A stretch of 64,000 bases of DNA, taken from Dehalococcoidia bacterium (lineage in GTDB: Bacteria > Chloroflexota > Dehalococcoidia > UBA6926). The stretch is from contig CBDBNN010000003.1 of the NCBI GenBank assembly GCA_965207895.1, forward strand, positions 1,111,268 through 1,175,267, given 5' to 3'. Below the pieces are notes generated by a model that had not been told where the DNA came from, did not search any database, and was given only the letters and a program-made list of their open reading frames with translations. Below are positions 42,605 to 61,584 of the stretch, piece after piece. How positions within the stretch are numbered: the first letter of the stretch is position 1; each line of letters opens with the position of its first letter. Both the position numbers and the translations under genes were made by a program.

Positions 42605-45586
42605 ATGAGTCGCGCTGGAAGAGCAAGTCTCGGATGGAAGCTGATGGGTTGGCTCAGGCAAACGGTCACCCTTGCAGCGGTCATGGTTTTCATGACGGCC
42701 CTTCTGTCGTGCGGCGACGCATCAGACACGGTGAGGCTCGCAACCACAGGCGACTACCATCCGTTCAACTTCATCAACGAAGCCGAGCAGATTGACGGCC
42801 TTGAGAGGGAGTTGGGCGACGAACTCTGCCGCAGGGCTGAACTGGAGTGCGAATGGGTCCTGAATGACTGGGAGTCCATGATCCCTGACTTGGTGGCGGA
42901 GGATTTCGACGCCATCATCGCCGGCATGAGCATCACGGACGCCCGGGACGAAACCATCGACTTCACCCAGCCCTACTATCCGCCGGAGCCTTCGGTCTAC
43001 CTAGCGGTGGCTGGCGCGGGCGATGAGGCGACCCAGGGGAGATTGGGCGCGAACGCAAACACCATCTACTCCGACTATTTTACAAGAGAGGGCATCCCGT
43101 TTCGGTCCTTCGACGTGTCGGAGGATGACCACCTTGAAGCACTGTTCAAAGGCGATATCGACGCAATCCTCGTAGATCACGCCTACGCCGTCCAGAAGCG
43201 GGAGGAGTACGAAGGCAGACTGAATGTCGTGGGTCCTTCGATTCTCTTGGACCGCGGCATAGGCATAGGCTTGCGCAACGACAGTGAACTGTTGGCGAAG
43301 CTGAACTCTGCCTTAGCGTCCATGAAGGCCGACGGCTCGCTAGATGCCCTCATCGTCAAGTGGGTGGGCGAGGACGCAGCGACGTTCGGTAGAATCTCGG
43401 TGTCGTCCTCTGTACCAGCGCCGCCCGCCACGCCTGCGCCCACATCCACGCTGCCTCCCGAGCCGACTCCCACCCCTGAGCCACCATCCGCGCAGGAATT
43501 GCTGGACGCGACGACTGCGGCCATGAATAGCGTCGAGTCAGGCCACGGTGAGGTGGACGTGGCCGTCAAGTTGACGCAGGCGAACGAGACGGTGGACTTG
43601 ACATTGAGGATCGTGGGCGACTTCCAGGTCCCGGACCGCAACCAGGCGCAGCTCAGCTTCACCGCCGGCGGCATCACCGTGGAGTTCGAGGCGATCACCA
43701 TCGGCGACAAGACCTTCATGACGGACTTCATCACGGGTGAATGGACCGGCCTGCCCACGCTGCCCACGCCCTTCGGCAACGAACTGCTGGCAGCCGGGGC
43801 ATTCGGCACCGACTTCGGCTCGGAGGTAACCCAGGGGTTCGTCCCGGTAGGCGAGGAAAGTCTCGACGGCGAGAGCGTCTACCATCTGAGAGGCCCCGTG
43901 TCGGGTGAGGTCCTCGCCGAAATGCTGAACGATCCCAGCATCGGGAACGGCGAGGGCGAGGTGGAATACTGGATCGGGGTCGGAGACAGTCTCGTGCGCA
44001 AGGTCGTGATTGAGATGGAAGTGACCGAGGAAGACCCCATCACCAACACCACCGTTATGATGGCGATGACGGCCGTCACGGTTCTGTCCAACTACAACAA
44101 GCCCGTGGATATTCAGGAGCCGGAGGTGGAAGGCGAGGGCGTGTTCGGTGGGGACGACCATGGAGACTTTCTTGACGAGGCCACTACTGTAGCCCTCGGA
44201 GAGAGCGTCGAAGGCAACATATACGACACTGACTACGACCATGACTATTTCAGGTTTCAGGCCGAGGAGGGACAGAACTACGAAATAGTGGTAGACCACG
44301 GAACCCTAGAGTAAGCCTTGTTGACGCTCTACAACTCTACTTGGGAAGCGCTGACGTGGAGCGATGGCGACCAAGACGGCCGAAGCTCTCGGATTACGTG
44401 GGTTGCCCCCGACTCCGAGTGGTACTACGTTCTTGTCCAAGGCTACGGGTCCCCGGGTTCCTATTCCCTGACGGTCGTTCCCACCAGTGCTGCCACGCCA
44501 ACCGCTACTCCCACACCTGAGCCCACGGCCACCAGCGCCCCTGAGCCCGCCTACTCCATGCAACCGCACGTGTTCCTGAGAGTCGTGCTGGTTACGGAGG
44601 ACTGGGTGCCGTTCTCCAACCCAGGCGGCTGGACGCAGGCGGTGCCGCAGAAGGAGAGCGCAACGCTCCGGTATTACGAAGCGGCGATATGGGAGGAGAT
44701 GGACTCCGTTCACCTCTACGCCTTCCCCAACGACTACGATCCGCTCTACGGCGTCTTGGGAGACGTGTCCAAGGACGATATGATCGCCTACCGGGAGCAG
44801 TACTCCTTGAGCGTCCACACGGGGATGCCGGAGGAGTCATCGGATGAACGGAGCGACTTTCTGCGGAGCGCGTTCGAGGACTTCGCAGCAGTGCTAGTGG
44901 AACGCCATCCTCAGGCGGAGCATCACTTCATGTTCAGCGGCCATGGCGGCCCCGGCGGCGACCTCTTCGCAACGCAGATGAAGAACGCTGACGCAGATGC
45001 TTTTCTCGGGTCGTGGACGCGGCACTTGGGCAGGCCCTTGGGCGTCATCGACATGGGCGGACCGTGCAACAAGGGCGGCTACGAGGACCTAGCCAACTTC
45101 TGCAAGCACGCCCGTTACTACGTGGCGTCCGATCTGCCCAACGGTGGGTATTCGATGGACGAGTGGACGCCGGAGAAGCATTGGGAGACCAGCGAGGCGA
45201 AGCAGTACCACCGCATCCTTGCATCGAACGACACCCTGGAAGAGGCGCTCATCGAGCGCGTCAACCTTCGCAGGACGGACTACGAGTATTCCAGGCAGAA
45301 CCAGGCGAGAGACAGGGTGGCGCAGGCAAACTACGTGTACTCCTGCGTCGCCTTCAAGGACTTCAGCGCGGCGTTCGAGACCTTCCTCGACGACGCGACT
45401 ATTCCATACCCCTTGCATGACCTGTATGAGTTACTCGTGAGGCATCCGGCGCCGTCCAGCCTGCTGGAGAAGTTCCAGAAGGTCATCGTGCACGCCGTAG
45501 ACAACCGGGATTTCTTCGAGTGGAGCTTCCCTGCAAACGGCATGATCTCGCCGCTGGAGCGCATCTATCAGCGGCAGTCGCAGTAA
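42605..45586 (+). pseudogene. Multidomain lipoprotein (polar amino-acid SBP + LppX/LprA-like + PPC + clostripain-like peptidase) interrupted by an in-frame TAA at 44312-44314
   Basis: ORFs 42605-44314 and 44318-45586 share a frame; the stop falls inside a PPC domain (DHDYFRF...GTLE*ALLTLY...GSYSLTV); C-terminal FSGHGG and DMGGPC. Confidence 0.65.
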
Positions 45587-46587
45587 GTGGATTGGGGACC
45601 CGGGAAGGAACGTTGAAATGCCCGCCGATGTCCACCAAGCGATGAAATCGCGATTGCCCGTTGTGGCCGTTGGCCCGCATAGCGTGTTACGCGGTTACTT
45701 TTCCCTCGCGCTAAACAAGGTCGCCTAGCAGTCCGGTAGGGAGTGTCCAATAGGGAGGGCGTTCATATCCTCGCGCCAGCTCACAGCGTGTCCGGCTCGT
45801 TCCGCTTAAGGTCGGGGCGACCACGCCGTCTCGCGCCTCAGGGTACAACTTCCTACAATACAATCAATACAACAAAGTTGCGATGGAGCGTCAACTACTC
45901 ACTTGCCAAATTGCTCGTTCCAACCCCCGTCTCCCGACTGTTTCCTGTTGGAAACGGCCCTCATTGTATTCTGCAATGTAGTTTGATTCTCCTTACAGCC
46001 CGTGTAGGGTGAAAACCGTCCCTGAGCGATTGTAGTCTGACGCGTCAGCCCTTGCGCAGACACTCGCTTCGGCGTCGGTGCGCCCGACATCTCATTGATC
46101 TTCGCCGACTGGGGTTTCATCCCTCGTGCATCTCACCTACAGGCGCACGATATACCACTGATGTACCACGCTTCCCGACCTTCCCGTGTACAACATGTAC
46201 CACTTCAGCTAGGGCGCATGTACCACCCGTCGCAACCGGCCCCCGACAAAAAATGTTCGCCGTCATCGTCCCATAGGGGGCTGGATTCGCCCCGCGTCAG
46301 CTTTGAAAACCGCCCCGATGTACAACATGTACACGGGTTCGTTTCCGTGTACTGCCCCCTGACGTCCAGCTCGACTAATCCCAAGGTCATGGGCTGACGC
46401 ATCAACGGGCTAATGGTCCCATTACATCAATGTAGTCCCCTGCGAGGGGCTACAGGCGCGTAGTCCCTTCCGAGGGATACCGCTCGCTCTCCCAGGTCCG
46501 CAGACTGGTCTAAGGACGCCGGACATCCGGCGTCAACGGCGGTGAGGCCAGTCTGCAATCCCGCCGAGACCGACACGGAGGAGCGGG

Positions 46588-46800
46588 ATGAAGAGGTCCG
46601 TTAGAAAGAAACCAACAGCGTGCGTTCCTAAGTCACCGAGGAAATCATCGCCAGGGTACACCGCCGCGCAGCGAGAGCAACTGCGGCGTGCGCTACGTAT
46701 CCTGGCCCGGATGATCGTCCGCGCTCATCTGCGGGGTGAGATACCCGAGGCAGCGTCGCCGTCCACGAAGCCGCCGTCAGAGAAGGGGTCCGGCGGATGA
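46588..46800 (+). CDS. Small basic protein of mobile element A
   Basis: YTAAQREQLRRALRILARMIVRAHL is homologous to 55554-55820; GGAGGAG RBS. Confidence 0.6.
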   Translation: MKRSVRKKPTACVPKSPRKSSPGYTAAQREQLRRALRILARMIVRAHLRGEIPEAASPSTKPPSEKGSGG

Positions 46801-46985
46801 ACCGCCATGAAGCAAGCCCCGAATCCTCAACGCCGCGTCATCCTGGCGGCGGCTCAGGGCATCGTGATCACGGCCCCACCCCTACCACAAATCCCACCCC
46901 ATAACAACGGCTTCCAAGGCATTACATGCGAGCAATTTCCCGGTCAAGATGGGATGTTGGGACATCAGCAAGTTGAGGCATCGGA

Positions 46986-49031
46986 TTGGTAGCCACAGAT
47001 ACACGAACACAAGCATCGAACGGCGCGGCGCAGGCCGGAGCGGACCTCGACGGGGCGGTCCGGGACTACGTGCGCACCTACGCCGTGCTGCATGGCAGGC
47101 CCAAGGCGGCCGAGGCCCTCGGCGTCTCCCGCCACACCCTGTGGCGTTTCCTCAACCGGGGCCACGCGGGGCGGGCCATACCCCGAGCGGTGCTGGAACG
47201 CGTGGGCAAGAGCGCAGAGGCGCTGGAGGACGCTGAGGAGCGGTTGATACTCCAGGCGCAAGCCAAACGGCGACTGAAGGACGGCGGCCCGGTCGCCGAG
47301 CGGCGCACACGCCTTCTGCGCGAGGCCCTTGAGGACGCGCTGCGGCTGCTGTGCGCAACGCCCCTGGCCACCGTGGACGAACTCTCCCGCTTCGGCAGAG
47401 TCCCCACCTCCACTATGAGAGAACGCCTCGGCAAGCTCGCCAATCGGGGCCTGGTGGACTCCGTGTCGCACCAGTTGAGCGTTCTTGGCTCTCGACCCCA
47501 GCGCCGCTACTTCCCCACGAAGCAGGGCATCGTCGCCGGAGGGAGGATCGAGCACGGCACGGACCACTTCCTCAGCGAGTATCCGGTGTCCAGGCAGTGG
47601 TTCCGGCTGCTGGCCGAGCGCATGGACGCCGTGGCCGTCCTCTACCGCGTCGCCGCCATGATCGCCGACGCAGACCCGCATGAGAAGCCCGTGCGGGTGG
47701 ACCACTACCGCAGCGGCCCCTACGACATACTGCTCACTCTGTCCGGGGGACGCTCCATCGGCATCATCCGCCAGGGTGCGACCCTACCCACCTCCAACCT
47801 GCGCTACCGTCTCAGGAGCATAGAGCGCCTCCCCAGCCGGGAGAGGCCCTTCGCCACCCTGGTGCTGACCCACGCCGACCAGGCCACCCGCAGGGCGATA
47901 CGCTCACTGGGAGACCCCTCGGAGCACCGCAGGACCTTCGCGGCGACGGAAGGGGAGCTTCTGGCCGTTGCCCACACCGGCGCCGTCTGGCAACAGTGCG
48001 GAGACGGACGGGACAACGACCCGCCCGTGCGCATCGACCCCGGCGCGTCTCTTAGGAGCATCCTGGCGTGGATGGATCGGCTGTTGGACTCGTCCCATTC
48101 GTCCTTCCGCGACAACCCGAGGCCAGATCTCGAAGACCTCTACTCCTCCCGTGTGAAGGCCGCCATGCCGGAGCCTGCCCAGCAACTCACGTCCTCTATC
48201 TCGGCGCGGCTAACACGCGTCGGGAAGGACGCCCTGGACCTGCTGTCGGCATGGCCCCTGTGCACCCGTGAGCAGCTTGCGGGGCTGATGGGCGGCGTCA
48301 CCCTGCGCCGGGTCAACCAGGTGATCCGCTCCCTCCGTGAGCACGACCTCGTGCTGGAGGACGGCTCCCTCCTCATGCTCACCGACGAGGGGCTGACGCA
48401 CCTGGCCCGCCGGGACCGGGCCGCCGTCGGCCTCACCCTCGACCGCTGGAGCCCCGAACCATCGGACTCCAACCCCAACGTCTACGCAGGGACGGCCCTG
48501 CGTGCCCTGGCCGCCCAGTTCCGCCACCACGCCGGCGTCGTCGGCTTCGCTTCCGCCCTCTCAGCCGAGGTCGCCCGCTCCCCGGACTACGACCTGTTCG
48601 ACCTGCTGCCCACCCACCGCTCCAGCATCGGATACCGCTACGACCAGACGACCTACGCCATCCACCCCGACGCCTCCTTCACCCTGGAGTACAGAGGCGA
48701 GTGGCGTCCCTTCCTTCTGGAGTTCGAGCGGAGGGCCACCACGCCGAAACGCATCCCCAAACGCCTGAGGTCCTACCGACGCTACTTCCGGAGCGGCTGG
48801 GCAAAGCGAGACCACGAGGGACACCTGCCCCACGTGCTCTTCGTCTTCGAGTCCCCCGACAGCGAGACCGCCTTCCTCGACATCGCCGACAGCGTGGACG
48901 ACGCGCCCATCGTCACATCGAACACTGTGGACCTTGCCGAGCATGGCGTCCTGGGCAAATCGTGGATACTGCCGCCCCCATATTCCCTCCACAGAAGGCC
49001 CCTGGCCCTGACGTATCAGCCTGCGCAATGA
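46986..49031 (+). CDS. HTH + replication-relaxation (Replic_Relax)-like protein
   Basis: N-terminal HTH (AAEALGVSRHTLWRF), winged-helix segments, HH.GV, HPDA...FLLEFER. Confidence 0.65.
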   Translation: MVATDTRTQASNGAAQAGADLDGAVRDYVRTYAVLHGRPKAAEALGVSRHTLWRFLNRGHAGRAIPRAVLERVGKSAEALEDAEERLILQAQAKRRLKDGGPVAERRTRLLREALEDALRLLCATPLATVDELSRFGRVPTSTMRERLGKLANRGLVDSVSHQLSVLGSRPQRRYFPTKQGIVAGGRIEHGTDHFLSEYPVSRQWFRLLAERMDAVAVLYRVAAMIADADPHEKPVRVDHYRSGPYDILLTLSGGRSIGIIRQGATLPTSNLRYRLRSIERLPSRERPFATLVLTHADQATRRAIRSLGDPSEHRRTFAATEGELLAVAHTGAVWQQCGDGRDNDPPVRIDPGASLRSILAWMDRLLDSSHSSFRDNPRPDLEDLYSSRVKAAMPEPAQQLTSSISARLTRVGKDALDLLSAWPLCTREQLAGLMGGVTLRRVNQVIRSLREHDLVLEDGSLLMLTDEGLTHLARRDRAAVGLTLDRWSPEPSDSNPNVYAGTALRALAAQFRHHAGVVGFASALSAEVARSPDYDLFDLLPTHRSSIGYRYDQTTYAIHPDASFTLEYRGEWRPFLLEFERRATTPKRIPKRLRSYRRYFRSGWAKRDHEGHLPHVLFVFESPDSETAFLDIADSVDDAPIVTSNTVDLAEHGVLGKSWILPPPYSLHRRPLALTYQPAQ

Positions 49032-49776
49032 CCACGTTCTCCGTTCCGAACCCTTCCAATAGGGGCTGTCCCAGCAGCTTTGCTGGGACAACTTGCACAG
49101 GTGACCGGTCACCAATCTCCGCTACCGCGCTTAGATGTACAATCCGTTGCAGAACCGACCGGTCAGGCCAGTTTCCCCGCTGCGTCACACACCCCCGTCA
49201 CCATCGCCCCTCAGCTACGATCCCTGCCTACGACAGCCTCGCCCGGAGAACTCCGACTGAGCAGCAACTTGCCACAGGAGCATGTTCCAACTTCCCCACC
49301 GAGCCGTTCCCAGGACTTCCTATAGGGGACAAAAGGGCATTCCCACTACTTACCGTGTCAGCCCCCAACAGCTCCCAAAAGTACAATTCGTTGCAGAATA
49401 GGCGGGAGCGCCGATTACGCCGACTTCCACCTGTTGGACGCTCTCGGCGGGATGACCGGTCACTAATCTCTCTGCCGCCCTCCAAAGAGGTGTCCGCATT
49501 GCTTGCTGCGATGTGGCTCCGATGTGGCTATCCTGCCGACTTGCATTTCTGCAACTGACGCAAATCCCTGTACACCCCCACGACATCAAAACCGGCCTCC
49601 GAAGGCGTTCCCGGCGGCTTCAGAAGGGGTATCGACCGCCTCAACCTGCCCCCACCGGATCGCTCGTAGCGATGTCGCCTGGCCCGATTCTCGCCATCTC
49701 TCCCTTGACGGCAGGACTGCGGTTGCGAGATGATATAGAGTAAGACGCAGTGCCATATCAAGGGACAAAAGGAGCC

Positions 49777-49992
49777 ATGCCCGTCAAGCCCAGGAACACC
49801 GACACCGTAACCTTCTCGCTGCCGCCGGAGACTGCGCAGGAGCTTCGGGACGTGGCAACGGATGAGCAACGCACCGTGAGCGAGTTGCTCAGAGAGGCCA
49901 TACGCCTCTACATGGAGGAACGTGAGTGGCGCATAAAGGAGCGGATGCAACGACGGCGTTCACGCCAAACGAGACAGGACAGGGAAGGGTAA
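49777..49992 (+). CDS. Ribbon-helix-helix (CopG-like) regulator
   Basis: VTFSLPPE...RTVSELLREAIRLY. Confidence 0.85.
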   Translation: MPVKPRNTDTVTFSLPPETAQELRDVATDEQRTVSELLREAIRLYMEEREWRIKERMQRRRSRQTRQDREG

Positions 49993-49994
49993 AG

Positions 49995-51089
49995 ATGAGT
50001 CAGACGAATGACTGCACTCCCGTGGCCCTGTACACCAGGGTGCCGTCCCTCGTCGTCGTGCCGTTCTGCCTTATCGTCGTGATTCTTGCGGGTTGCGCCC
50101 AGGAATCTGCCCCCAACGAAACCGACCCCGTGATCGTGGGGTTGATCACCAAGACCGAAGGCAACCCCTTCTTCGTCACCATGGCCGAGGCGGCGCTTCA
50201 GCGTGCCGAGGAGCTTGACGTCGAGCTGCGCACGTACAGCGGCGCCTACGACGGGGATGCACAGGCGCAGATAGCGGCCATCGAAGAACTGGTCGGGGCG
50301 GGGGCGAAGGGCATCCTCATCACCCCGTCGGACCCGCTGGCTCTAGAACCGGCGGTCGCGCAAGCGCGTGCGGAGGGCCTGCTGGTGATCGCCCTCGACA
50401 CGCCCTTCGATCCGCCGGACACGGTTGACGCAACCTTCGCCACAGACAACTTCCGGGCCGGTGAGCTGATCGGCATCTGGGCACGGGAAAAGCTGGGACC
50501 GCTGGCGGCTCAGACCCGGATCGCGACGCTGGACGGCTACGAGACGCCGGTCACCGTCGATGTGATGCGCAACCAGGGCTTCCTCCACGGCTTCGGCATC
50601 GACATCAAGGACCCGGGGAGGAAGTACGACGAGGACGACCCGCGCATCGTCGGCAGCGCTACCACCATGGGCGCGGAAGCAGGCGGGCGCAGCGCGATGG
50701 AGCGCCTGATGCGCATGGACCCGTCGATACGACTGGTGTACGCCATCAACGAGCCCGCGGCGGCGGGAGCATACACGGCACTCCGTTCCATGGGGCTGGA
50801 GCGGGAGGTGCTGATCGTTACCATCGACGGTTCCTGCTCCGGCGTGAGCAGCGTCGCCAGGGGTGAGCTTGGAGCCACCGCAATGCAGTTTCCGGTCCGC
50901 ATGGCAGTGCAGGGCGTCGAAGCCGTGGTCGAGTTCGTACGGACCGGACAGAAGCCACAGCCCCCAACCGGGCGCGACTTCCACAATACGGGCGTGACGT
51001 TGGTGAGTGCGGAGCCGGTCGCCGGTGTGCCGTCCATTGACACCGAACAGGCCCTGACGGAGTGCTGGGGGGCGAGTCCAGCGGGGTGA
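49995..51089 (+). CDS. Sugar ABC transporter substrate-binding lipoprotein (FrcB/RbsB-like)
   Basis: LAGC lipobox, ITKTEGNPFF, ATDNF.AG, INEP.A.G, TIDG. Confidence 0.85.
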   Translation: MSQTNDCTPVALYTRVPSLVVVPFCLIVVILAGCAQESAPNETDPVIVGLITKTEGNPFFVTMAEAALQRAEELDVELRTYSGAYDGDAQAQIAAIEELVGAGAKGILITPSDPLALEPAVAQARAEGLLVIALDTPFDPPDTVDATFATDNFRAGELIGIWAREKLGPLAAQTRIATLDGYETPVTVDVMRNQGFLHGFGIDIKDPGRKYDEDDPRIVGSATTMGAEAGGRSAMERLMRMDPSIRLVYAINEPAAAGAYTALRSMGLEREVLIVTIDGSCSGVSSVARGELGATAMQFPVRMAVQGVEAVVEFVRTGQKPQPPTGRDFHNTGVTLVSAEPVAGVPSIDTEQALTECWGASPAG

Positions 51090-51142
51090 GCAGACTCCGC
51101 TCTCGCGACACCGACAACATGACCAATATGAAGGAGAAGCCA

Positions 51143-52936
51143 ATGAGTGAACGAACCGACCTGATACCCGTCGCCCTCTACGCCAGGGTCTCCAGTGACC
51201 GCCAGGACGTGGACCTGTCCGTGGCCGCCCAGATGCGGGCGCTCAGGGACTACGCCCAGAAGAACGGCTACGTCGTGGCAAGGGAGTACGTGGACGAGGC
51301 CGAGAGCGGCAGGATCGCCGACCGGCCCCAGTTCCAGAAGATGCTGGACGAGGCGGGCAAGCCCGAGGCCCCGTTCCAGGAGATTTTGGTCTGGAAGTTT
51401 AGCAGGTTCACCCGCAAGCGGGAGCACGCCGTCGCCTTCAAGTCCATGCTCCGCAGACGAGGCATCCGCGTCGTCTCCATCACCGAGCACGCCGACGACT
51501 CTCCCACCGGCAAGCTCATGGAGGCCATCATCGAGTCGGTGGACGAGTTCTACAGCGCCAATCTCGCAGAGGAGGTCTCCCGTGGGATGCGGGAGGCCGC
51601 GTCCAGGGGCTTCTGGGTCGCCACCTTCGCCCCCTACGGCTACCGCAAGGTCTACGTCCAGGACGGGGCCAAGAAGCGCCCCAAGCTGGAGCCGGACCCG
51701 CCCGCCGACGCCGTGGTCAAGCGCGTCTTCGACATGGCCCTCCGGGGTCAAAGCTCCCTGGACATTACCAAGACCCTCAACGCCGAGGGCGTCCCCTCTC
51801 CCAGGGGCAAGCAGTGGCTCAAGAGCGCCGTCCACACCATGCTCACCAACGAAGCCTACACCGGCGTTCTGGTGTGGGGAACCAAGGCGAAGGAAAACGG
51901 GGAGCCGGTGCGGGTGGAGAAGGCGTTTCCCGCCCTCGTCTCCAAGACCAAGTACCGCCAGGTGAGACGGCTCCTCAAGTCCCGCGCTCCCAAGGTCGTC
52001 CACCCCCGCCGGGCCTCCAGCCCCTACCTGCTGAACGGGCTGGTCAAGTGCCAGAGGTGCAGGAAGGCCCTCACCGCCGCCGAAGCCAAGGGCGGCAAGT
52101 ATACCTACTACGTCTGCCACTCCCTGCTCAAGAAGGGCAGCGGCGCCTGCACCACCCCCAGGCTCAACGCCAAGCGATTCGAAGGACTGATTGTGGAAAA
52201 CATCCGGGACAACATCCTCACCGAGTCCAACATCACCGAACTGGTCAAGATCGTGGACGAGGAGATGGACGGGGTGGCCAGGGAGCAGCGCCAGCGGCTG
52301 AAGGTCGTCGAGGAGGAGCTGGATGAGGTGAAGCGGCGGCTGGGGCGCATCTGGCAGGTGATCGAGACGACCGAGATCGAGATGGCCGACGCCACGGACC
52401 GCATCAAGGAGCACCGGGAGCGCAAAGAGAAGCTGGAGGCCGCCGCCGAGGATGCCAGGGCCATGCTGTCGAAGCGCAGGGTGACGCTGGACAAGGTGGA
52501 GACCATCGCGGCCTTCGCTCTGGACATGAGCAAGTTCCTCAGGAAGAGCGAGACCACCGAGTCGCGGGCCTTCATCCGGTCCTTCGTCAGCGAGATCGAG
52601 GTCAGGCCCGGCAGGGCGACGATCCACTACAGCATACCCACCCCGGAGGACTCTCCCATAGGCGGGGCTGACCTTGCGGAGGTCACCCTCGGCAGGGGAG
52701 TTCGCAGTATGGGAGTCGCTGGTGGGCTACCGTTTACGGAAGATACCACCGAGCCGTTCAGCGGTATCTGCTGCACTTTTTTTCCTGGAATCAAGCTATC
52801 GTCCGGCATGGGGACGGCGTATCGGACGACGGCGTTGTCAGGCAGGAGTTCGATCTCCCTGACGAAGGTCTCGATGAAGGCCCGGCGCTCGGTCAGCTCG
52901 CTCTCCTTCAGGAACCTGCTCATGTCCTTGGCGTAG
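51143..52936 (+). CDS. Large serine recombinase (element A)
   Basis: YARVSS, KFSRFTR, APYGY, zinc ribbon CxxC...C...C, coiled coil; the last ~70 codons read antisense into the other recombinase. Confidence 0.93.
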   Translation: MSERTDLIPVALYARVSSDRQDVDLSVAAQMRALRDYAQKNGYVVAREYVDEAESGRIADRPQFQKMLDEAGKPEAPFQEILVWKFSRFTRKREHAVAFKSMLRRRGIRVVSITEHADDSPTGKLMEAIIESVDEFYSANLAEEVSRGMREAASRGFWVATFAPYGYRKVYVQDGAKKRPKLEPDPPADAVVKRVFDMALRGQSSLDITKTLNAEGVPSPRGKQWLKSAVHTMLTNEAYTGVLVWGTKAKENGEPVRVEKAFPALVSKTKYRQVRRLLKSRAPKVVHPRRASSPYLLNGLVKCQRCRKALTAAEAKGGKYTYYVCHSLLKKGSGACTTPRLNAKRFEGLIVENIRDNILTESNITELVKIVDEEMDGVAREQRQRLKVVEEELDEVKRRLGRIWQVIETTEIEMADATDRIKEHRERKEKLEAAAEDARAMLSKRRVTLDKVETIAAFALDMSKFLRKSETTESRAFIRSFVSEIEVRPGRATIHYSIPTPEDSPIGGADLAEVTLGRGVRSMGVAGGLPFTEDTTEPFSGICCTFFPGIKLSSGMGTAYRTTALSGRSSISLTKVSMKARRSVSSLSFRNLLMSLA

Positions 52937-54318
52937 GCCGTGATGGTATTCACGTCGTCGAGGACAGCCCTACGCCGGGCCAGGATCGCCCTCGCCCCCT
53001 CTGCGGCGGACTCAAGGCGCTGCTGCCGCTCCTTGTGGTCCTGGATGCGGTCGGCGAAATGGGCCATGTCGAACTCGGTCGTCGTCTCCACCAGCTCGTA
53101 GAGCCGGTCGAGCCTGCCCCGCACGTCGGCAAGCTCCGACTCGATGGTCTCCAGCCGCTTGCGCTCATCGCCGGCCACGTCGTCCATCTGCTCGTCCACC
53201 ACGTTGACCAGGCTCCGGATGTTGCCCTCGGTCAGGATGTTGGAGCGGATCAGCCCGACTATCAGCTCCTCGAACTGACGGGCGTCCACCCTGGGCGAGT
53301 CGCAGGAGCCTGGGGCGCGCTTCACGAAGGAGTGGCAGACGTAGTAGGGAAAGGTGCCCCTGCTGGAGTAGCGGCCAGAGAGCGCCCTCCTGCACCGGTA
53401 GCACTTGACCAAGCCGCTCAGCAGGAAGGTGCTTCCCACCCTGCGGGGGTGGGTGTTCCTGGGGGCGCGGGAGCGCATTATCCTGTTCACCCGGTCGAAC
53501 TGGTCCCCGGTGACGGTGGCGGGGAACGCGCCCTCCACCCGCACCGGGTCTGCACCGTCGCTGGCGTTGTTGCCCCATACGAGGGTTCCCAGGTACGCTT
53601 CGTTTCTGAGGATGTTGTGGACGGTGGGCTTGTTCCAGAGCTTCCCCCTGGGGCTCTTGATGCCCTCGTCGTTGAGGATGCGGACTATCTTCATCATCCC
53701 CTTGCGGGACTCGGCCAGGTCGAAGATGCGCTTGACGACGCCGTTGGTTTCGGGGTCGGGTTGGAGGGTGGGCCTCTCCTTGGGGCCGTCCTGGACCTTG
53801 ACCTTCCTGTAGCCGTAGGGTGCCATGGGAGCGACCCAGAAGCCGCGGGACGCCGCCTCCCTCATGCCCCGCAAGACCTCCATCCCAAGATTTTCCGAGT
53901 AAAACTCGTCCACGGTCTCGATGATGCCCTCAAGCAGCCTGCCGGTGGGGTTGTCCTCGGCCTGCTCGGTGATGGAGACGACGCGGAGGCCCTTTCGTCT
54001 GAGCATGGACTTGAGCACGACGGCGTGCTCCCGCTTGCGGGTGAATCTACTGAATTTCCAGACCAAAATCTCCTCAAAAGGGGCCTCGGCTCTCTTGGCC
54101 TCGTCGATCATCTTCTGGAACTCTGGGCGGTTCAGCACGCGTCCGCTCTCCGCCTCGTCCACGTACTCCCTGACGACCTGGTAGCCGTTCTTTTGGGCGT
54201 GGTCCCTGAGCGCCCTGAGCTGGGCGGAGACGGACAGGTCCACGTCCTGTCTGTCGCTGGAAACCCTAGCGTAGAGGGCCACGGGCGTGCGGTCGGTCTG
54301 TTCGGTCTTGCTGCTCAT
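52627..54318 (-). CDS. Large serine recombinase (element B)
   Basis: YARVSS, KFSRFTR, APYGY, CYRC...YYVC...C; paralog of 51143-52936. Confidence 0.93.
   Translation of the reverse strand: MSSKTEQTDRTPVALYARVSSDRQDVDLSVSAQLRALRDHAQKNGYQVVREYVDEAESGRVLNRPEFQKMIDEAKRAEAPFEEILVWKFSRFTRKREHAVVLKSMLRRKGLRVVSITEQAEDNPTGRLLEGIIETVDEFYSENLGMEVLRGMREAASRGFWVAPMAPYGYRKVKVQDGPKERPTLQPDPETNGVVKRIFDLAESRKGMMKIVRILNDEGIKSPRGKLWNKPTVHNILRNEAYLGTLVWGNNASDGADPVRVEGAFPATVTGDQFDRVNRIMRSRAPRNTHPRRVGSTFLLSGLVKCYRCRRALSGRYSSRGTFPYYVCHSFVKRAPGSCDSPRVDARQFEELIVGLIRSNILTEGNIRSLVNVVDEQMDDVAGDERKRLETIESELADVRGRLDRLYELVETTTEFDMAHFADRIQDHKERQQRLESAAEGARAILARRRAVLDDVNTITAYAKDMSRFLKESELTERRAFIETFVREIELLPDNAVVRYAVPMPDDSLIPGKKVQQIPLNGSVVSSVNGSPPATPILRTPLPRVTSARSAPPMGESSGVGML
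52700..52749. other. Recombination junction/att site between the two recombinase genes
   Basis: GTTCGCAGTAT-N13-GG(52724-52725)-N13-GAAGATACCAC; left arm is the reverse complement of the ATACTGCGAAC arms upstream. Confidence 0.65.
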
Positions 54319-54335
54319 GTGTGCGTCCTCCTGTT

Positions 54336-54533
54336 TCATTTGCTCTTGTTTCTGCGGGCCTCGGCCCGTTGTCGGCGTTCCTGGATGCGCCACTCCCTCT
54401 CCTCCATGTACAGGCGTATGGCCTCGCGGAGAAGCTCGCTCACGGTGCGCTGTTCATCCTTGACCACCTGCCGCACCTGTTGGGCCAGCTCCGGCGGCAG
54501 AGAGAAGGTGATGGTGTCGGTGGTCCTGGGCAT
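54336..54533 (-). CDS. Ribbon-helix-helix (CopG-like) regulator
   Basis: Paralog of 49777-49992, identical over DEQRTVSELLREAIRLYMEEREWRI. Confidence 0.85.
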   Translation of the reverse strand: MPRTTDTITFSLPPELAQQVRQVVKDEQRTVSELLREAIRLYMEEREWRIQERRQRAEARRNKSK

Positions 54534-54575
54534 GGTGGGTATCATCCCCTTTTTTGCCTGTCGAGATATCGCTCA

Positions 54576-54616
54576 GTCTTACTCTTATCATGAACGAATC
54601 AGGCCGCCGAGTCAAG
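54576..54616 (-). promoter_or_regulatory. Putative sigma70 promoter and operator of the RHH-recombinase operon
   Basis: TTGACT-N17-CATGAT followed by AGAGTAAGAC; equivalent TTGACG-N18-GATGAT..AGAGTAAGAC at 49705-49746 (+). Confidence 0.5.
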
Positions 54617-54667
54617 GTTCGCGCCCCTGTATCGGGCAGTCCAAACAGGGTAAAATCGGGGCGAGAT

Positions 54668-55450
54668 ATGTCTACGCTGAGGCTCATCCTGTTGGAGGTA
54701 TTCAGGCGGTTTCTGTGGAAGCCGCTGCTGCTGGCGATCATGGTCGCTGGCCTGGCGGCTACGCTGCTCGCGTGCAGCGACGACGCGGAGCCGGTGCTGC
54801 TGGCCACAGAGGGCGACTACCGCCCCTTCAACTTCATCAACGACGACGGTGAGATCGACGGGCTGGAACGGGAGCTCGGCGACGAGCTCTGCCGCAGGGC
54901 CGGGCTTGAGTGCGAGTGGGCGCTGAACGACTGGGAGAGCATGATCCCGGACCTTGTGGCGGGGGAGTTCGACGCCATCATGGCAGGCATGAGCATCACC
55001 GACAAGCGCGACATGACCATCGACTTCACCGAGCCGTACTACCCTCCCACTCCCTCCGTCTACCTGGCACTGTCGGGCGCGGGCGACGATGCAGTTGAGG
55101 GTAAGCTCGGAGCCTACGCCAACACCATCTACTCGGACTACTTCACCGAACGGGGCATCGCGTACGTGGAGTTCAACGACGAGGACGACCGGCTGGCGGC
55201 GCTTCTGAACGGCGACATCGACGCGATGCTGGTGGACCACGCCTACGCCACGGACAGGCTCTCGGAGTACGAGGGGCGGCTGACCGTAGTCGGCCCCTCC
55301 GTGCTGCTGGACCGGGGCATAGGCATAGGCGTGCGCAACGACAACGAGTTGCTGGCGAAGCTGAACTCTGCCCTCGCGTCGATGAAGGCGGACGGTTCCC
55401 TGAACGAGCTCATCCGCAAGTGGGTGGGCGAGGACGCCTCGACCTTCTAG
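54668..55450 (+). CDS. Polar amino-acid ABC transporter substrate-binding lipoprotein
   Basis: LLAC lipobox, TEGDYRPFNF, FDAIMAGMSIT, DFTEPYY; close paralog of the N-terminal domain of 42605. Confidence 0.88.
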   Translation: MSTLRLILLEVFRRFLWKPLLLAIMVAGLAATLLACSDDAEPVLLATEGDYRPFNFINDDGEIDGLERELGDELCRRAGLECEWALNDWESMIPDLVAGEFDAIMAGMSITDKRDMTIDFTEPYYPPTPSVYLALSGAGDDAVEGKLGAYANTIYSDYFTERGIAYVEFNDEDDRLAALLNGDIDAMLVDHAYATDRLSEYEGRLTVVGPSVLLDRGIGIGVRNDNELLAKLNSALASMKADGSLNELIRKWVGEDASTF

Positions 55451-55553
55451 CCGGCGCCGCCGGAGAATCTGCCCGCCCATACTCAGGGCGGTGGTCGCAT
55501 CGGTCGCCCTCTGGCTGGTGGAGTTTCTTCCCTCATGCCGCATCGCAGCAGCC

Positions 55554-55820
55554 TCAGACGCCATGCTCTTGACCTCGCTCGGCCTCAAGGCCATCTAGCT
55601 TCCGTCCCTCGCCGTCGTCCTCAATGGCTTGGGGCCGTGGCGATGTTTCCGCCCTCTCCTCCAGGTAGGAGCGGATGGCGACGCGGGCCAGGATGCGCAG
55701 CCCCTTCAGTACCGCCCTGCGATGCTGTGGGGTGTAGGACGGCATGGAAAGCTCCAGGGCCTCTTCAAGCTCCCGGCCTCTGAGCGTCTTTCGTCTTCTC
55801 TTTTCTCTGGTGTCTTTCAT
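55554..55820 (-). CDS. Small protein of mobile element B
   Basis: YTPQHRRAVLKGLRILARVAIRSYL is homologous to 46588-46800. Confidence 0.6.
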   Translation of the reverse strand: MKDTREKRRRKTLRGRELEEALELSMPSYTPQHRRAVLKGLRILARVAIRSYLEERAETSPRPQAIEDDGEGRKLDGLEAERGQEHGV

Positions 55821-55929
55821 GGGTCACAATCGCAGCGGTCAATCGTCGGGCCGCTGGCCTCTCGTTGTCAGGTATGGGAGTGGTCCGCCATCGCGGACAG
55901 GCGGGACGCAGCTTCAGGTTGTGTCATCG

Positions 55930-56196
55930 CTATTCCTCCAGTCTGAAAAGGTCGTTGAAGTCGTCCACTCCCAAGGCCTTCTGCATCCGCTCCCGGATGC
56001 GGCCGGAAGGGGCTCGCCCCGCGTTCACCAGCATCGAGAGGTAGCCGGGGCTTATCCCGGTCTCCCGCGCGAGCCAGGACTGGGAGCGGTTCAGCAGAGC
56101 CAACCGCCTCCAGAGCGCCGCCGCGTCGAGCCGGACGACCGCCCGTCCTCCACGCCTTCGGTGATCTTCCTGCTCGTTGGCCTTCAGTGGTTTCAT
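55930..56196 (-). CDS. XRE family HTH regulator
   Basis: SQSWLARETGISPGYLSMLVNAGRAPS. Confidence 0.85.
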   Translation of the reverse strand: MKPLKANEQEDHRRRGGRAVVRLDAAALWRRLALLNRSQSWLARETGISPGYLSMLVNAGRAPSGRIRERMQKALGVDDFNDLFRLEE

Positions 56197-56238
56197 CGTT
56201 CCGGCTCCTATCGGTTCAGCGATTCAAGGGAGTTGCAA

Positions 56239-57990
56239 CAGAGTCTGAACAAACGAAACGGGGTTGAATACTAGCCACGACGACGTGGGACGGAAGGGGG
56301 TGCTGGACGCCCCTCCCTCCGGCTCCCACCCTGCGGGAATCTTGGAAATCGGCCTCCGGCCTGATGCACCGTGGGTGTACAGGAGATCGAGTTTTGTCTG
56401 TGATACGTCAAACGGGTCGCTGCAAAGCTGAAACAGGGGTAAATCACCTCCCTACCGGACGTAACCTGTGAACACTTCGTTGAAAGTCCCCAGTCCGGTT
56501 GAAATCGAGAAAATGCGATTGACGTGGGGGTGCATGACGCGGCCCAAAATCGGCGGCCAATCGGAAAACGGGCCGAAAAAGCCGTTCGATGTGGGGGTGC
56601 GTGCCGTCCGGCGAAAGACTGACCGGACCGGAGCGTAGTTCCCGGTGGAATGAGTCGTCCTGCCGAACGGAGCTTCAACTTCAGCGCCAACTCGCTCACC
56701 TCCTGTGGTTTGCTGTGGTTCATCGGATCGCAGCCCTTGCCAGAGAGTGTGAACAAATCAAGCGCCGAAAAAGACCTCACGCATGGTGGCACCACGCATG
56801 GTCTGCAATCGGGGAGCCGTTTCTTGCAGTAGCGGGGGTGTACAGGAAATGGAGTTTGGTGACTGACTGGTCAAAGTCGTGATTTCGTAGCTGAATCAGG
56901 GGCAAAACCCTCTCTACTGGACGTGAGCGGTGAGCAATCTGGTGAAAGGGCGGATTCCGGTCTCCGATGACAAAAAGAGGCTTGAGGTGTGGGTATGTGA
57001 CGCGGGCAAATTCGGCGGCCCGATGACAAAAGCGGCCCAAAAGGCCGCTTGAGGTGGGGGTGCGTGACGCCGGACGGGATAGATTCCGAAGCCGGAACGA
57101 GTTCCCCGTCAAGAACGAAGAGTCGATGAGGACGACCCAACACGGCGTCGAGGACGGCGGGGACTTCGAGAACGTGTACCACATGAGACTCTTGGACCTC
57201 CTGAAAGAGCTGGCGTGAAAGCTGGGCAACGACAGCACCGAGGCACGCTTCAACGGGCCGCAGCACTCCGCAAGAGAGTGTGAACAACGGATATGCGATC
57301 CGGAACCTCCCATGCGCAGGTGCGGAGATGCACCTGCACGCGTGGGGTTACGAAACCGCACCCTTCGCGCTGTAGCTGGGGTGTACAGGGAAGTGGTGTT
57401 GGGTTGGAAAATCCAAGTGAGGTCATTTCGTAGCTGGAGCAGGAGGAAATAGCCTCCTATTGGACGTAACTGGGAAGCACTTTGGGGGAAGGGCTCCTTC
57501 CGGCAGTGACTTGGAAAACCACGGTGTCAGAGTTGGATATTCCAACTGCGAAGACATGGGCCGGACTTGGAAGAGTCTCGAATGAAACTTGGATTCTCCA
57601 GGTGAGAAGGCTTTGGACACGCGGGAGAGTGTGAACAAACGAAAAACGCTTGGATACTATCCACGGTGTGCATCGCCAGTGATGCACCCTCCGAGGTCGT
57701 CGTGAATCGCCCTGACAGACGCAGTGGTAGGGGTGTACAGGAAACTGAGTTTTGTGAGGAATCGAAGAGTCGGTCGCGGCAAAGCTGAAATAGCCGTAAA
57801 CAGCCCCCTACAGGACGTGCTCAGTGAACGACTTTTTGAAAGAGTGCGTTCAGGTCAATCTGCTCAAAACCCGTTGGATGGTGGGGGGCACGCATCGCGG
57901 GAAGTCGGCGGGTGGAGCGTAAAACGGGGCGATAAACACCGGGGACGTGGGGGAGTATGACGCCGGGCGGCAACCGGGGGCCAACGGCCT
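56239..57990. repeat. Four degenerate long non-coding repeat units (periods 463, 543, 352 bp)
   Basis: GAGT(G/C)TGAACAA, then GGGTGTACAGG (56373, 56836, 57379, 57731), then AGCTG...CTANNGGACGT, in the same order in each unit. Confidence 0.8.
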
Positions 57991-59349
57991 GGCCGGGATG
58001 GTGTGGAGACCGTGATAGGACCGGTCAATAGCTCCTGGTCGTCACTGGATGGGACTTGGCGCAAGGCCGCGCTCTCCGGCACGCGGAGGGCACGGGAGAA
58101 TGGGGAGTGTATGGATACACTGAGGCGCTTGCTGTCCCTGTGGCTATGGTCGAAGTGACAGGCTTGACTATGCACAAGGTCGGATCGTCAAGGATGTGAA
58201 CTTTAGTTGAAGTGGATATGAACTAAATCAACCGATCTGGGCCATAACGCCGTCAAAGCCTTCTCAACGCCGCGACGGTCTGCTAATAATGGTTGCACTG
58301 TTTGGCTTTCTCCAAGGTTTCCGACCATAGAAACCTGGGTGCGTGATCCCTGTTGCACGGGCTTTGCCCAAGAGGGAATGCTGGCGATGCGGAGTGACAA
58401 GCCCTTCGCAACCAGCGCGGGCCGATTCGACGGAGTGAACAAGCCCTCCGTTCTCGGCTCAGTCCAGAGGGCTGAAGTTTGACGTTGGTCCTTCACCCGC
58501 TGGGCAATCGTCCGGCGCATCGGAGTTGATCGCTCCGGTTGCTGGGCACAGGTCCAACGGCTGGGGTTGATCACCTCAACGTCGGACCCATGGGACTCGG
58601 TGTGCGTTCAGCGTCTCGCCCCCGGCAAACTGGTTGAAGTGCGCCTGTCGCCTCGGCTAGTTCAGCATGTCTGCGGTCAGGCTGGCAAACAGCTAGGCTA
58701 CAGCTTCGCAACGCGCCGGTCTGTAGCTCTGAGCAGGCTGGCCGCTTCACGTCCCGCAGCTTTCCCGTTGTCGTTGTTCACCTCGGGCCGGACTGCGTCC
58801 TCTTCTCGTTGCGTCATCCTGTGGTTTGCGCCGCAGGTCAGACGCTTCCCCTCATCGCGGCTTCTTCCCGACTGACGATGCTCGTCCTGGGCCGAGCTGC
58901 GCCTTTCGCATTCCACTCCGTAACACGCGTCCGGCATTCGACCGTGGGCGGAGTGCGTCTTCCGTCGAACGATCCCATCACGCACGCACAACCCACGCCA
59001 CGGATGCCGCGCGGGTCAACAACCAGAAGGAGGTGCACATGCACATTGAGTAACCGGTAGGCGAGGTCGAGGGCGTCGCAGTCTGCTTCGGCAGCTTTGG
59101 CGTCTCGACATACGGCCTGGAGTCCACTTCGTCGCTGACGATCGGGGCTTCCGGCTTCTCGCATACAAGACCCATAGCAGTTGGCGAGCACAGGGCCGCT
59201 TCTCTTCACCAAGAGGAGCGGCCCTTCTCTTTGCAAACACAAACCCACGGAGACAGTCCCGGCATTCGGGACAACCAATTCGAGCGGGACTGTCTCCACC
59301 CCACGGGGGTGGTGGGCCGTCCCGCTTCTTCATTGAAAGGAGAAGCGAC

Positions 59350-60507
59350 ATGACGACGGCAACCACGACGAGGACCAATAGGACCAAGGACACGGAAACC
59401 ACGACGGATGCGGCGGCGCCCGCCGAGCGCAGGGGCAGGCCCGAGAGCGAGCTCAGGGCGGCGGCCCGCAAGCGCGGCCTCACCTTGAAGGAGCTTGCGG
59501 CCCTGATGGGCGTCAGCGCAAGCCACCTGTCCCAGGTCGGCACAGGCAAGAAGCCCTGGACCCCCAACCTGCGGGAGAAGGCGATGGCCGTGCTGGGAGA
59601 GGTCCCTGGGCAGGGGATCGTCTACCGACAGACCCGCGAGGTAGATGCAGAAAGTACCTTCATCCGGGAGCGCGCACGCGAGATAGGAATCACCATGCTG
59701 GAACTGTCCGACCGGTCGGGAGTGAGCTACGGCTACCTGACGCAGGTGGCAAGGGGACGCCGGAACATGGGACCCAAGGTGCAGGCCAGCATCGAGTCGG
59801 TCCTGAACGCTCCGGCCAGGGTCGCCCCCGCACAGTGCGCCAACCGCCAGGGTGACGTGATCGAGAGTGAGGCCAGCAGCTTCATCAGGGAGACCGCCCG
59901 CGCCCTCGGACTAACCATGAGGGAGCTGGCCGAGAAGGTCGGCGTGTCCGCCGGGTACCTCAGCCAGGTGTCCAGAGGGCACCGTAGCATGGGGGTGAAG
60001 CTCCAGGCCAGGGTCGAGGCCATGCTTGGGGGACGGGCGAAGGTCGAGTCCGCCATGTGCCCGGACATCGACCGGCAGTTCATCTGGGAGCGGATGGACG
60101 AGTTGAACGTGAGCCAGAACGAGGTGGCGCGTAGGGCGGGCATCAGCTCCGGCCACCTCTCCCAGATCATGAACGGCAGAAGCACCCCGTCAGCCGTGGT
60201 CCTCAGGAAGCTGCACGGGGCGCTGTTCCGGCGGGCGGAGGACTCGGAGCGGGTGATGCCCGTGGCCTTGAAGGTGCTGGGCTGGAAGAAGGGGGAGCGC
60301 AGCGGGATGGTGGTGCACGGCGCTCGCGGCAGGGATGGCACGGCCAGGGGCGGCGCGGTCCGCGTCGGCGGGCGCGTGCCCTGGGGAGCGGAGGTGGAGT
60401 ACGCCTTCCGCGCCGGGTACGACGGCGCAGGGAAGGTGTCCGTGGATCACGTGGTCGCCCCGGGCTACTCCGCACTGCTGACACAGCCCCAGGCCGGAGC
60501 CGCGTAA
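59350..60507 (+). CDS. Protein with four tandem XRE-type HTH domains and an unknown C-terminal domain
   Basis: Four repeats resembling LT.xELAxxxGVSxxxLSQ; GAAAGGAG RBS. Confidence 0.82.
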   Translation: MTTATTTRTNRTKDTETTTDAAAPAERRGRPESELRAAARKRGLTLKELAALMGVSASHLSQVGTGKKPWTPNLREKAMAVLGEVPGQGIVYRQTREVDAESTFIRERAREIGITMLELSDRSGVSYGYLTQVARGRRNMGPKVQASIESVLNAPARVAPAQCANRQGDVIESEASSFIRETARALGLTMRELAEKVGVSAGYLSQVSRGHRSMGVKLQARVEAMLGGRAKVESAMCPDIDRQFIWERMDELNVSQNEVARRAGISSGHLSQIMNGRSTPSAVVLRKLHGALFRRAEDSERVMPVALKVLGWKKGERSGMVVHGARGRDGTARGGAVRVGGRVPWGAEVEYAFRAGYDGAGKVSVDHVVAPGYSALLTQPQAGAA

Positions 60508-60678
60508 GGAAGACGGCCCAGAGTAGGCCGCACACACAACGAGGCCCGCACATGCGCGGGCCTCGCATATCCAACAAGACGCCTGGGGGCGTTGCCGGGA
60601 CCCCAGCGCTCCCACGGGGGGCCGCCCTGCGGGTTCCGACGGCGTCCTCCGGTCACCAAGCATCAGGAGGACGACACC

Positions 60679-60890: not shown

Positions 60891-60925
60891 CGTACGCGGT
60901 GCAGTAAAAAGGCGACATGCCATGG

Positions 60926-61462: not shown

Positions 61463-61520
61463 CTCCGCTAAACCGGGTGTCTCCTCAGGACCTGCCCATC
61501 ACCCGCCCCACGGCCAGCGC

Positions 61521-61554: not shown

Positions 61555-61584
61555 CCGTTCTCTTGCCGGTCCGGCCGGGCCGGA

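Follow-up and report, generated by a model that had tools for sequence, protein, structure and literature searches.

In a 64,000-nt stretch of the genome of a Dehalococcoidia bacterium (contig CBDBNN010000003.1 of assembly GCA_965207895.1, positions 1,111,268 to 1,175,267; the whole stretch is hereafter the window and is numbered from its first base), two genes for large serine recombinases (LSRs), designated ORF A and ORF B, converge and overlap at their 3' ends. Our interpretation, to which we would give a probability of about 0.85, is that positions 52724-52725, which lie inside both genes, are the crossover of a serine-recombinase attachment (att) site joining two neighboring integrative islands, A and B, of a single family specific to the Dehalococcoidia. 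The anatomy of the site, both boundaries of island A, the empty site in a relative, and the recurrence of the arrangement are established by the comparisons given below; from these we infer that LSR A and LSR B themselves catalyze recombination at exactly these two base pairs.

The 310-bp convergent antisense overlap noticed in the preliminary description (52627-52936) is confirmed by the ORF coordinates (Table 1). Both ORFs encode LSRs by domain content: each protein has Resolvase, Recombinase, and Zn_ribbon_recom domains, the resolvase catalytic domain (PF00239) matching with E-values of 8e-33 in A and 4e-33 in B, the Recombinase domain (PF07508) and zinc ribbon (PF13408) being found in A and B alike, and the nucleophile-serine motif YARVSSDRQ lying near both N-termini. 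The N-terminal domain of each also matches the solved structures of TP901-1, TnpX, and SPbeta/YokA, and an AlphaFold2 (AF2) model of one homolog (P0012) shows long helices, at moderate confidence, after the zinc ribbon. The two proteins are 58% identical across 558 residues and their DNA is ~72% identical; the true start of ORF A is probably the ATG near 51140. A homologous ribbon-helix-helix (RHH) gene precedes each of the two LSR genes.

The conserved protein of ORF A ends at codon 555 (Gly, GGG at 52724-52726), and that of ORF B ends ..NGSPP at 52725-52720; the final 69 codons of A are the antisense of B and depend on context, and the final ~30 codons of B are the antisense of A. The codon-for-codon match of VRSMGVAGG in A with VVSSVNGSP in B, counted back from 52724-52725, holds, and both genes do place their crossover there: GG opens the Gly555 codon of A and CC the Pro557 codon of B. 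An alignment of homologous recombinases had been proposed as a check, and similarity ends at A codon 555, the sequences diverging exactly at this point across the family. The similarity of A to four paralogs in its own genome, which has at least six family members, stops at residue 555, and the 120 best database homologs (530-708 aa) are alike as far as ..NGG or ..SPP, beyond which they fall into a small number of recurring tail classes: a tRNA read in antisense, another recombinase gene read in antisense, short conserved tails, and unrelated sequence.

Table 1. Positions of the features discussed (window numbering, except where contig C1 is named).
Feature	Position	Strand	Remarks
ORF A, LSR, type I polarity	51062..52936	+	624 aa
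ORF B, LSR, type II polarity	52627..54393	-	588 aa
RHH gene upstream of LSR B	54336..54545	-	directly adjoining
P arm of island A, 25-nt half-site ending TGGT	52699..52723	+	inside the 3' end of A
Central (crossover) dinucleotide, GG on A strand, CC on B strand	52724..52725		arm symmetry, tRNA junctions, empty site, contig breaks at 52720
P arm of island B, 25-nt half-site, ..GGTAGC before CC	52726..52750	-	inside the 3' end of B
Island A, 14.3 kb	38429..52723	+	matching arms and empty site
Reciprocal junction (attL-like) of island A	38427..38428		host flank ..GGCGT, then GG, then P' arm
Conserved P' end of island A	38429..38477	+	25-nt inverted arm (38429-38453) and stretch that would complete A in a circle
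Replication-relaxation family protein, upstream-module member	46986..49031	+	homologs in 63 loci
RHH (CopG-type) gene, island A integration module	49750..49992	+	domain match
Island B	52726..64000	-	left end 52726; to at least ~60.5 kb by L019 homology
Small ORF, kept upstream of B-like and other family LSRs	55554-55820	-	homology
HTH_3 gene, kept upstream of B-like and other family LSRs	55930-56196	-	homology
C1 array, arm	C1:10452-76		candidate P' of island B
C1 array, island X, type II	C1:10479-33628		LSR at left end, arms 19/25 alike
C1 array, island Y, type I	C1:33631-48452		LSR at right end
C1 array, tRNA-Val(tac)	after island Y		array end

Anatomy of the att site and its two polarities

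The 25-nt arms that flank 52724-52725 are homologous half-sites at equal distance from the center. Their symmetry is centered on this dinucleotide, and the breakpoints found in comparisons fall within CCAC, so that sequence comparison narrows the crossover only to these four common nucleotides. To place the site in its family, we used 466 relatives confirmed in species-representative genomes, of which the best 80 loci, all from Chloroflexota/Dehalococcoidia, were retained; these, together with the loci of the same genome and the window, make up the census of gene ends. A recognizable site was present in 106 gene ends, and the alignment shows in each a fixed dinucleotide preceded by a 25-nt arm, whose outer motif resembles GGTTCT and whose inner motif resembles GTCAAGTC. 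Sixty-three of the ends (type I) read ..TGGT-GG-GCC and 43 (type II) read ..GGC-CC-ACCA; these are the two strands of one asymmetric core (TGGT-GG-GCY / RGC-CC-ACCA), which matches the tRNA acceptor end CC-ACCA, and the arms of both polarities are equidistant from the dinucleotide.

No family gene in the census has a stop codon before the crossover, and past the center the family sequences part ways, being followed by a tRNA, by host flank, by the end of a further island, or by a second LSR gene. Three paralogs in the same genome read without a stop antisense into tRNA-Val(cac), tRNA-Val(tac), and tRNA-Lys(ttt), their last conserved bases, ..TGGTGG, being the complement of the tRNA 3' CCACCA. 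Judged from these junctions and from the half-site alignment, the att crossover of each element sits inside the 3' end of its integrase gene, as the preliminary description had proposed, and it is this location that accounts for the odd antisense overlap of two intact-looking genes. That description had also invoked a flipped central dinucleotide; relative to its own gene, the CC of B is indeed the complement of the GG of A, and the genes therefore face each other, but the att sites themselves are not inverted.

More distant second integrases found at seven loci (L034, L035, L042, L049, L073, L075, and L081) end with a stop of their own (..LDGSAL, ..STRQ, or ..NNQ, followed by the stop), which falls just before the expected continuation of the arm. 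They lack the TGGT-GG / CC-ACCA core, and the missing stop is therefore a trait of the core family only.

What follows the center differs between the polarities. Among type I ends, 28 run antisense into a tRNA, 17 converge with a gene of the opposite type, none stops at a contig end, and 18 have another context; the corresponding figures for type II are 0, 17, 1, and 25. The tRNAs are of eight kinds (Lys-ttt and Ile-gat, six each; Val-cac and Val-tac, four each; Ala-tgc and Ala-ggc, three each; Met and Val-gac, one each). The 18 remaining type I ends comprise six spurious matches in stop-terminated relatives, one locus-edge pair (L090), two tRNA remnants, six ends followed by an inverted arm (1-8 mismatches to the family arm), and three that are unexplained. 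Fifteen of the 25 remaining type II ends are likewise followed by an inverted arm (1-9 mismatches) and ten by unrelated flank, which begins ACCA in 9/10 cases; in a control, ten or fewer mismatches to an arm were obtained in 0.1% of 2000 random 25-mer draws. The convergent pairs occupy 17 loci, including a homologous A-like/B-like pair in another genome (L026), and because the arrangement recurs in this way across the census, it is not due to chance. At L026 (11601-15775), the A-like partner lies on a very long branch (1.11), has an odd composition, and belongs to an island of ~4 kb at most; it is probably a decaying copy. A conserved module precedes the LSR genes of the family, with Replic_Relax in 63 loci, a helix-turn-helix (HTH) gene in 45, the small ORF in 37, and an RHH gene in 65.

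On a FastTree phylogeny of 91 LSRs, polarity requires at least five changes, compared with a mean of 29 after shuffling; gene polarity relative to the core is, on this tree, labile and has switched at least five times. Near-identical LSRs are found at different tRNAs or at a partner gene (L030 and L032, with branch lengths of ~0.003), which suggests that the acceptor-end core is nearly all that the enzymes require. Five further LSRs, L052, L061, L068, L070, and L071, are separated by branch lengths of only 0.014-0.025 and sit at five different tRNAs (Ile, Lys, Ala, Met, and Val). This spread suggests very relaxed recognition of the tRNA body.

The arrangement, and each class of junction in the census, can be accounted for by tandem stacking, as follows. 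The attP of an element would straddle the end of its integrase gene, with the P arm as the last ~9 codons and the 2-bp crossover in the next codon, and the other half-site, P', would lie at the far end of the island. In type I elements, the gene would occupy the arm placed next to the tRNA body and would read antisense into the tRNA; in type II, it would occupy the other arm and point away from the tRNA, into the DNA that lies downstream of it. The two types would stack in tandem, all of their sites keeping one orientation. If the array is drawn with the tRNA at its right-hand end, a type I island begins with P' and finishes with the gene, and the order is reversed in type II; two adjacent type I islands would thus meet as gene then P', two type II islands as P' then gene, and a type II island left of a type I island as P' then P'. 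At the ends of an array, the outer flank would be followed by P' or by a gene, and the tRNA preceded by a gene or by P'. When a type I island lies outward of a type II island, the remaining case, the two integrase genes would converge on one site, each reading the antisense of the other, and this is the A-B case, island A being placed between the end of the B integrase gene and the host flank left of 38427. The existence of two gene polarities thus leads to convergent, overlapping integrase genes.

Island A, its empty site, and the neighboring islands

A search beyond 64 kb had been proposed for the junction reciprocal to 52724-52725; scanning with all known arms instead located it inside the window, at 38427-38428. 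The inverted arm that follows (38429-38453) is identical to the A-side arm at 19/25 bases, and beyond it lies a stretch common to type I genes with ..TELRTFRWEV.I-stop tails; if the island were circular, 38429-38477 would add ..PEPTELRTFRWEVPI and a stop (TAG, 38475-38477) to ORF A.

The outer boundary is corroborated by a relative, L016, in which a B-like LSR gene (~86% DNA identity) ends ..GGTAGT-CC-ACC and is followed directly by the homolog of the window from 38426 down to 34612 (an NHL-repeat gene) and then by the homolog of 28270-22069; in the alignment, flank homology starts right after CC. Because L016 joins the B-like gene to the outer flank, it represents an empty site for island A, which bears out the earlier suggestion that one element was inserted at the site of the other. 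Having discrete ends, a pair of inverted att arms, and a relative in which its site is empty, island A is, by sequence comparison, an integrative genomic island. As to the order of events, either A would have inserted beside a resident B or the L016 lineage would have lost A precisely.

In order, island A encodes a MazE/PIN pair, an Eco57I-like methylase, an SBP_bac_3 protein, Replic_Relax, RHH, a fusion of an LSR 5' remnant to a lipoprotein, and LSR A. The fusion lies in 49926-51190: after the left RHH gene, the initial ~17 codons of an integrase gene (..TPVALYTRV) are joined in frame to a lipoprotein signal peptide and a sugar-binding protein (Peripla_BP_4). LSR A restarts past the Peripla_BP_4 gene with its own copy of the same ~50-nt 5' sequence; as this integrase start is present twice, the binding-protein gene is flanked by imperfect direct repeats.

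A lone right-pointing arm at 28325-28351 resembles a type II P' arm and is followed by GG (28352-53) and then by a decayed, 5'-truncated tRNA-Val(cac)-like sequence, which reaches 26.6 bits against the Rfam tRNA model (gathering score 29) and was not called by ARAGORN. A segment of 6.3 kb, 28271-34612 (M16 peptidase, ferritin, and an iron-dependent repressor), is absent from L016, and 28325-28411 is at its left edge. We had tried the 28352 site as the reciprocal product of 52724 and dropped it: L016 points to 38427, and 28271-34612 is a separate difference from L016.

Related strains and metagenomes also break at the junction. The locus L013 matches window 57464-52720 at 99.7% identity and goes no further than 52720; the homolog P0001 equals B up to ..NGSPP and is then different. 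A 710-nt contig from a sponge metagenome matches 52991-52720 without a difference and continues with 438 nt of other sequence, and a contig from another sponge metagenome ends at 52720. Four runs were examined as assembled Logan contigs, which show that other junctions exist and not how frequent they are. The alternative junctions were seen on the B side; among the listed assembled-contig pieces none bridges 52724, and the parts not covered by them are uninformative. Variation between strains is thus, as far as these sequences go, the presence or absence of a neighbor and not inversion. The runs that contain this stretch are mostly labeled as sponge or marine metagenomes.

No right end of island B was found in the window or in the rest of its contig, C3. 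Its arm at 52726 is, at 20/25 bases, like an arm on another contig of the same genome (C1:10452-10476), which is a good candidate for the P' of island B; the island would then reach to C1:10476 and form part of an array of four islands with tRNA-Val(tac) at its end. If the end of C3 joins the start of C1, this array would read flank, A, B (~28 kb), X, Y, and tRNA-Val(tac). The end of C3 and the start of C1 both consist of ~1.4-kb tandem repeats that are 83-85% alike (the C3 unit is 1389 bp, and C1 opens with the similar units), and the end of C2 overlaps the start of C3 with 99.9% identity over 6055 nt; C1, C2, and C3 probably form one circle broken at repeats. Tandems of like polarity are found elsewhere: L047 is a pair of type I islands ending at tRNA-Lys, and L023 is a pair of type II islands. 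The window sites at 28352, 38427, and 52724 and the three C1 sites all read GG on the + strand; as all six are directly oriented, their geometry is that of tandem insertion or excision and not of inversion.

Within the upstream module of island B, an SBP_bac_3 gene (54554-55450) lies between the RHH gene and the small ORF, standing in for the shorter spacer of B-like loci; it has a 74% identical paralog in the cargo of island A (42605-44314). Upstream of the island B HTH gene are two ~280-bp units (56370-56646 and 56833-57109), ~70% alike and 463 bp apart.

Competing explanations and the C-terminal tails

Of the 43 type II ends and the ~57 genuine type I ends, 17 each belong to convergent pairs, a frequency that could mean that A and B make up one element, a co-evolved module with a single attP in which each enzyme acts on its own half-site and both move as a unit. 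The homologous pair in L026 and the lack of a tRNA near any pair agree with such a module. Its partners, however, are promiscuous, the main type I arm pairing with three type II arm classes; near-identical LSRs sit at either a tRNA or a partner (L030, L032); B-like genes are also found in the absence of A, next to a host flank (L016), next to other island ends (L014-L023), or beside another neighbor in a near-identical strain; and A is matched by an inverted arm of its own at a distance of 14.3 kb. A joint element of this kind is, in our judgment, improbable. The preliminary description had also raised a regulatory switch or an invertible segment. In an inversion or phase switch, a segment would be turned over by recombination at 52724, and the two recombinases would exchange C-terminal tails. 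Two recombinase genes do face each other across a recombination core, and a contig from run X15 joins 51623 to 53740 on opposite strands, but the shorter side of this joint is only 31 letters long, and the joint falls in paralog-conserved regions of a multi-copy family, so that it is best read as a paralog cross-match and was set aside. Since all six sites are direct, a scan of the genome found no inverted partner, and strains differ by a neighbor instead, the invertible segment finds no support, and we consider it highly improbable. A chimeric assembly, fusing two paralogous recombinase genes, might be suspected because the family is multi-copy, with at least six members in this genome, and because the short-read contig of the near-identical strain (L013) breaks there. 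Yet A and B are only ~72% identical in DNA and have no repeat at the join beyond the 6-bp core; joins of this type recur at 16 further loci, in independently made assemblies that include complete chromosomes; the junction fits the half-site geometry of the family to the base; and both a reciprocal junction and an empty site exist. We therefore rate a chimera as exceedingly improbable.

Several observations weigh against our interpretation of A and B as two separate islands stacked at one site. Neither a circle junction nor a same-strain empty site was present among the assembled Logan contigs. The 17 pairs have no tRNA within 10 kb, a tRNA followed by a gene-less type II P' arm was not seen in the 80 loci, and ARAGORN found no tRNA in the last 110 kb of contig C3; a tRNA end for the A/B array hinges on an unproven link between the end of C3 and the start of C1. 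The candidate P' end of island B is not unique, since the 92-nt island end at C1:10385-10476 has a second copy at C3:10384-10475 (96.7% identical). Both copies stop exactly at the GG center, beyond which the contigs are unrelated, C1 continuing into an integrase gene (L005) and C3 into other sequence and then a 5'-truncated integrase gene that reads into tRNA-Lys. The pairing of type I with type II is not an independent test either: convergent genes that share one non-palindromic dinucleotide must read its complements, and the constancy of the pairing, which follows from the definition, was dropped as evidence. The informative point is that each polarity, in these alignments, is also found alone with the same arm and core. 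Finally, acceptance of the B-side site by the A enzyme is unexplained, the B arm being unlike a tRNA 3' half. On a matrix built from 24 distinct tRNA flanks, the B arm scored -23.9, compared with a random median of -28.3 and a 95th percentile of -13.1, and its role as a tRNA mimic was rejected; a third type II arm class scored only -8 to -13.

The preliminary description held that integration rewrites the C-terminal tails of both integrases, and the gene ends and database homologs agree that residues past the crossover depend on the adjoining DNA. Counted from the center codon to the stop, the median tail is 17 codons at tRNAs and 16-18 in the "other" classes; in convergent pairs it is 116 for type I and 32 for type II. 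Among database homologs, FRWEV-type tails are exactly 15 residues long in 14/15 cases and SRTFxL-type tails exactly 17 in 10/12, and both classes have hydrophobic residues at alternate positions. The predicted circle form of A ends ..GGPEPTELRTFRWEVPI, with the stop inside P'; those of islands Y and X would contain ..RTIFELWMG.. and end ..SRTFAISFKLEV before a stop, respectively. Past the P' arm, entropies at codon positions 1, 2, and 3 are 0.86, 0.62, and 0.99 in the SRTF class (n = 11) and 0.08, 0.51, and 0.83 in the FRWEV class (n = 5); in the IFEM class (n = 5 distinct sequences), position 2, at 0.63, is below the other two. This weakly coding-like variability is suggestive but not decisive. 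An AF2 model of P0012 with a 17-residue tail encoded across the att site (61-sequence alignment; mean predicted local distance difference test (pLDDT) score of 66, with 38-55 in the tail blocks) was uninformative on docking.

We put forward, as a tentative and on balance unlikely proposal, that the true C-terminus of the integrase is encoded across attP, a conserved peptide of fixed length being made only when P is joined to P', and that the enzyme thereby senses its integration. In the excised circle, or at a junction of islands of the same polarity, the gene would end in a short hydrophobic peptide, of which the classes seen or predicted are ..RTFRWEVxI-stop, ..SRTFxLxFxLxx-stop, and ..RTIFEMWL..; integration beside a tRNA, host flank, or facing integrase gene would exchange this peptide for arbitrary sequence (69 and ~30 residues at the A-B junction). 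If this were so, the activity, stability, or directionality of the integrase would change with the integration state of its element, and, of all the junctions in an array, only the convergent type I-type II one would disable both neighbors together. The same question, whether the tail matters, was raised earlier for dsiB of the Dehalococcoides ssrA islands (PMC3146451).

Relation to known integrases and islands

The comparisons supply base-precise attP, attL, and attR sites for a large, uncharacterized family of serine integrases, which seem to tolerate a wide range of tRNA acceptor ends as targets. Enzymes of this class whose sites are known are in demand as tools for genome engineering, and tRNA-end targeting is, to our knowledge, unusual among them. 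Tandem stacking also shows a route by which tens of kilobases of cargo build up in the genomes of uncultured bacteria; here, the stacked cargo includes toxin-antitoxin pairs, methylases, and solute-binding proteins.

In domain architecture, A and B match the phage LSRs (phiC31, Bxb1, A118, TP901-1, and SPbeta). The sites of Bxb1 and phiC31 likewise consist of two inverted half-sites, and a non-palindromic central dinucleotide alone sets their polarity. Phage LSRs usually have an intergenic attP and an attB within a protein-coding gene, whereas in the present family the integrase gene contains attP, and a tRNA end serves as attB. An attP within a gene, such that integration alters the C-terminus or splits the gene, is found in mycobacteriophages with integration-dependent immunity and in archaeal integrases of the SSV1 type, but these systems use tyrosine integrases, and in the mycobacteriophages the gene affected is the repressor. 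The CcrA, CcrB, and CcrC proteins of staphylococcal cassette chromosome mec (SCCmec) are LSRs, like A and B, and direct their islands to the 3' end of a conserved gene; cassettes of composite or tandem structure are found among them. The ccr genes, however, lie inside the cassette without overlapping att, and the target is rlmH (orfX), not a tRNA. The best NCBIfam match of A and B is CcrB, at 131.4 and 120.8 bits, far below the cut-off of 900, and by this curated cut-off they are not members of the SCCmec Ccr families. In the main texts of the literature searched, no description was found of tRNA-targeting serine integrases with overlapping convergent genes.

The closest counterpart among the systems compared is that of the Dehalococcoides ssrA islands, in which, in the portions of the published description consulted, the CcrB-like serine integrase gene dsiB overlaps attL and has its stop outside the island, sometimes in a neighboring island, and the islands stack in tandem (McMurdie et al. 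2011, PMC3146451). By that description, the two systems share the bacterial class, a CcrB-like LSR at the island edge whose 3' end overlaps att, a stop outside the island, divergent C-termini, and tandem accumulation at one RNA gene (PMC3146451). ARAGORN searches of the window, contig C3, and the loci, covering both tRNA and tmRNA, gave no tmRNA call that overlaps the end of an LSR gene. The ssrA islands are described as targeting the T-loop of tmRNA with a 20-bp direct repeat, whereas the target here is the tRNA acceptor end, of at least eight kinds, with a core of 4-6 bp (PMC3146451). The ssrA module, in the same account, has a small second serine recombinase, DsiA, in place of which the present module has Replic_Relax, HTH, a small ORF, and RHH (PMC3146451); no DsiA-like partner was found here, the genes upstream of A and B being RHH genes and tblastn of the window returning only A, B, and the 5' remnant. 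One gene polarity is described there and two are found here, and the parts of the description consulted do not mention convergent overlapping integrase genes (PMC3146451). A serine integrase gene that overlaps att, in neighboring islands, is thus already known from the ssrA islands as there described (PMC3146451); the tRNA acceptor-end target, the two polarities, and the overlapping convergent genes are new here.

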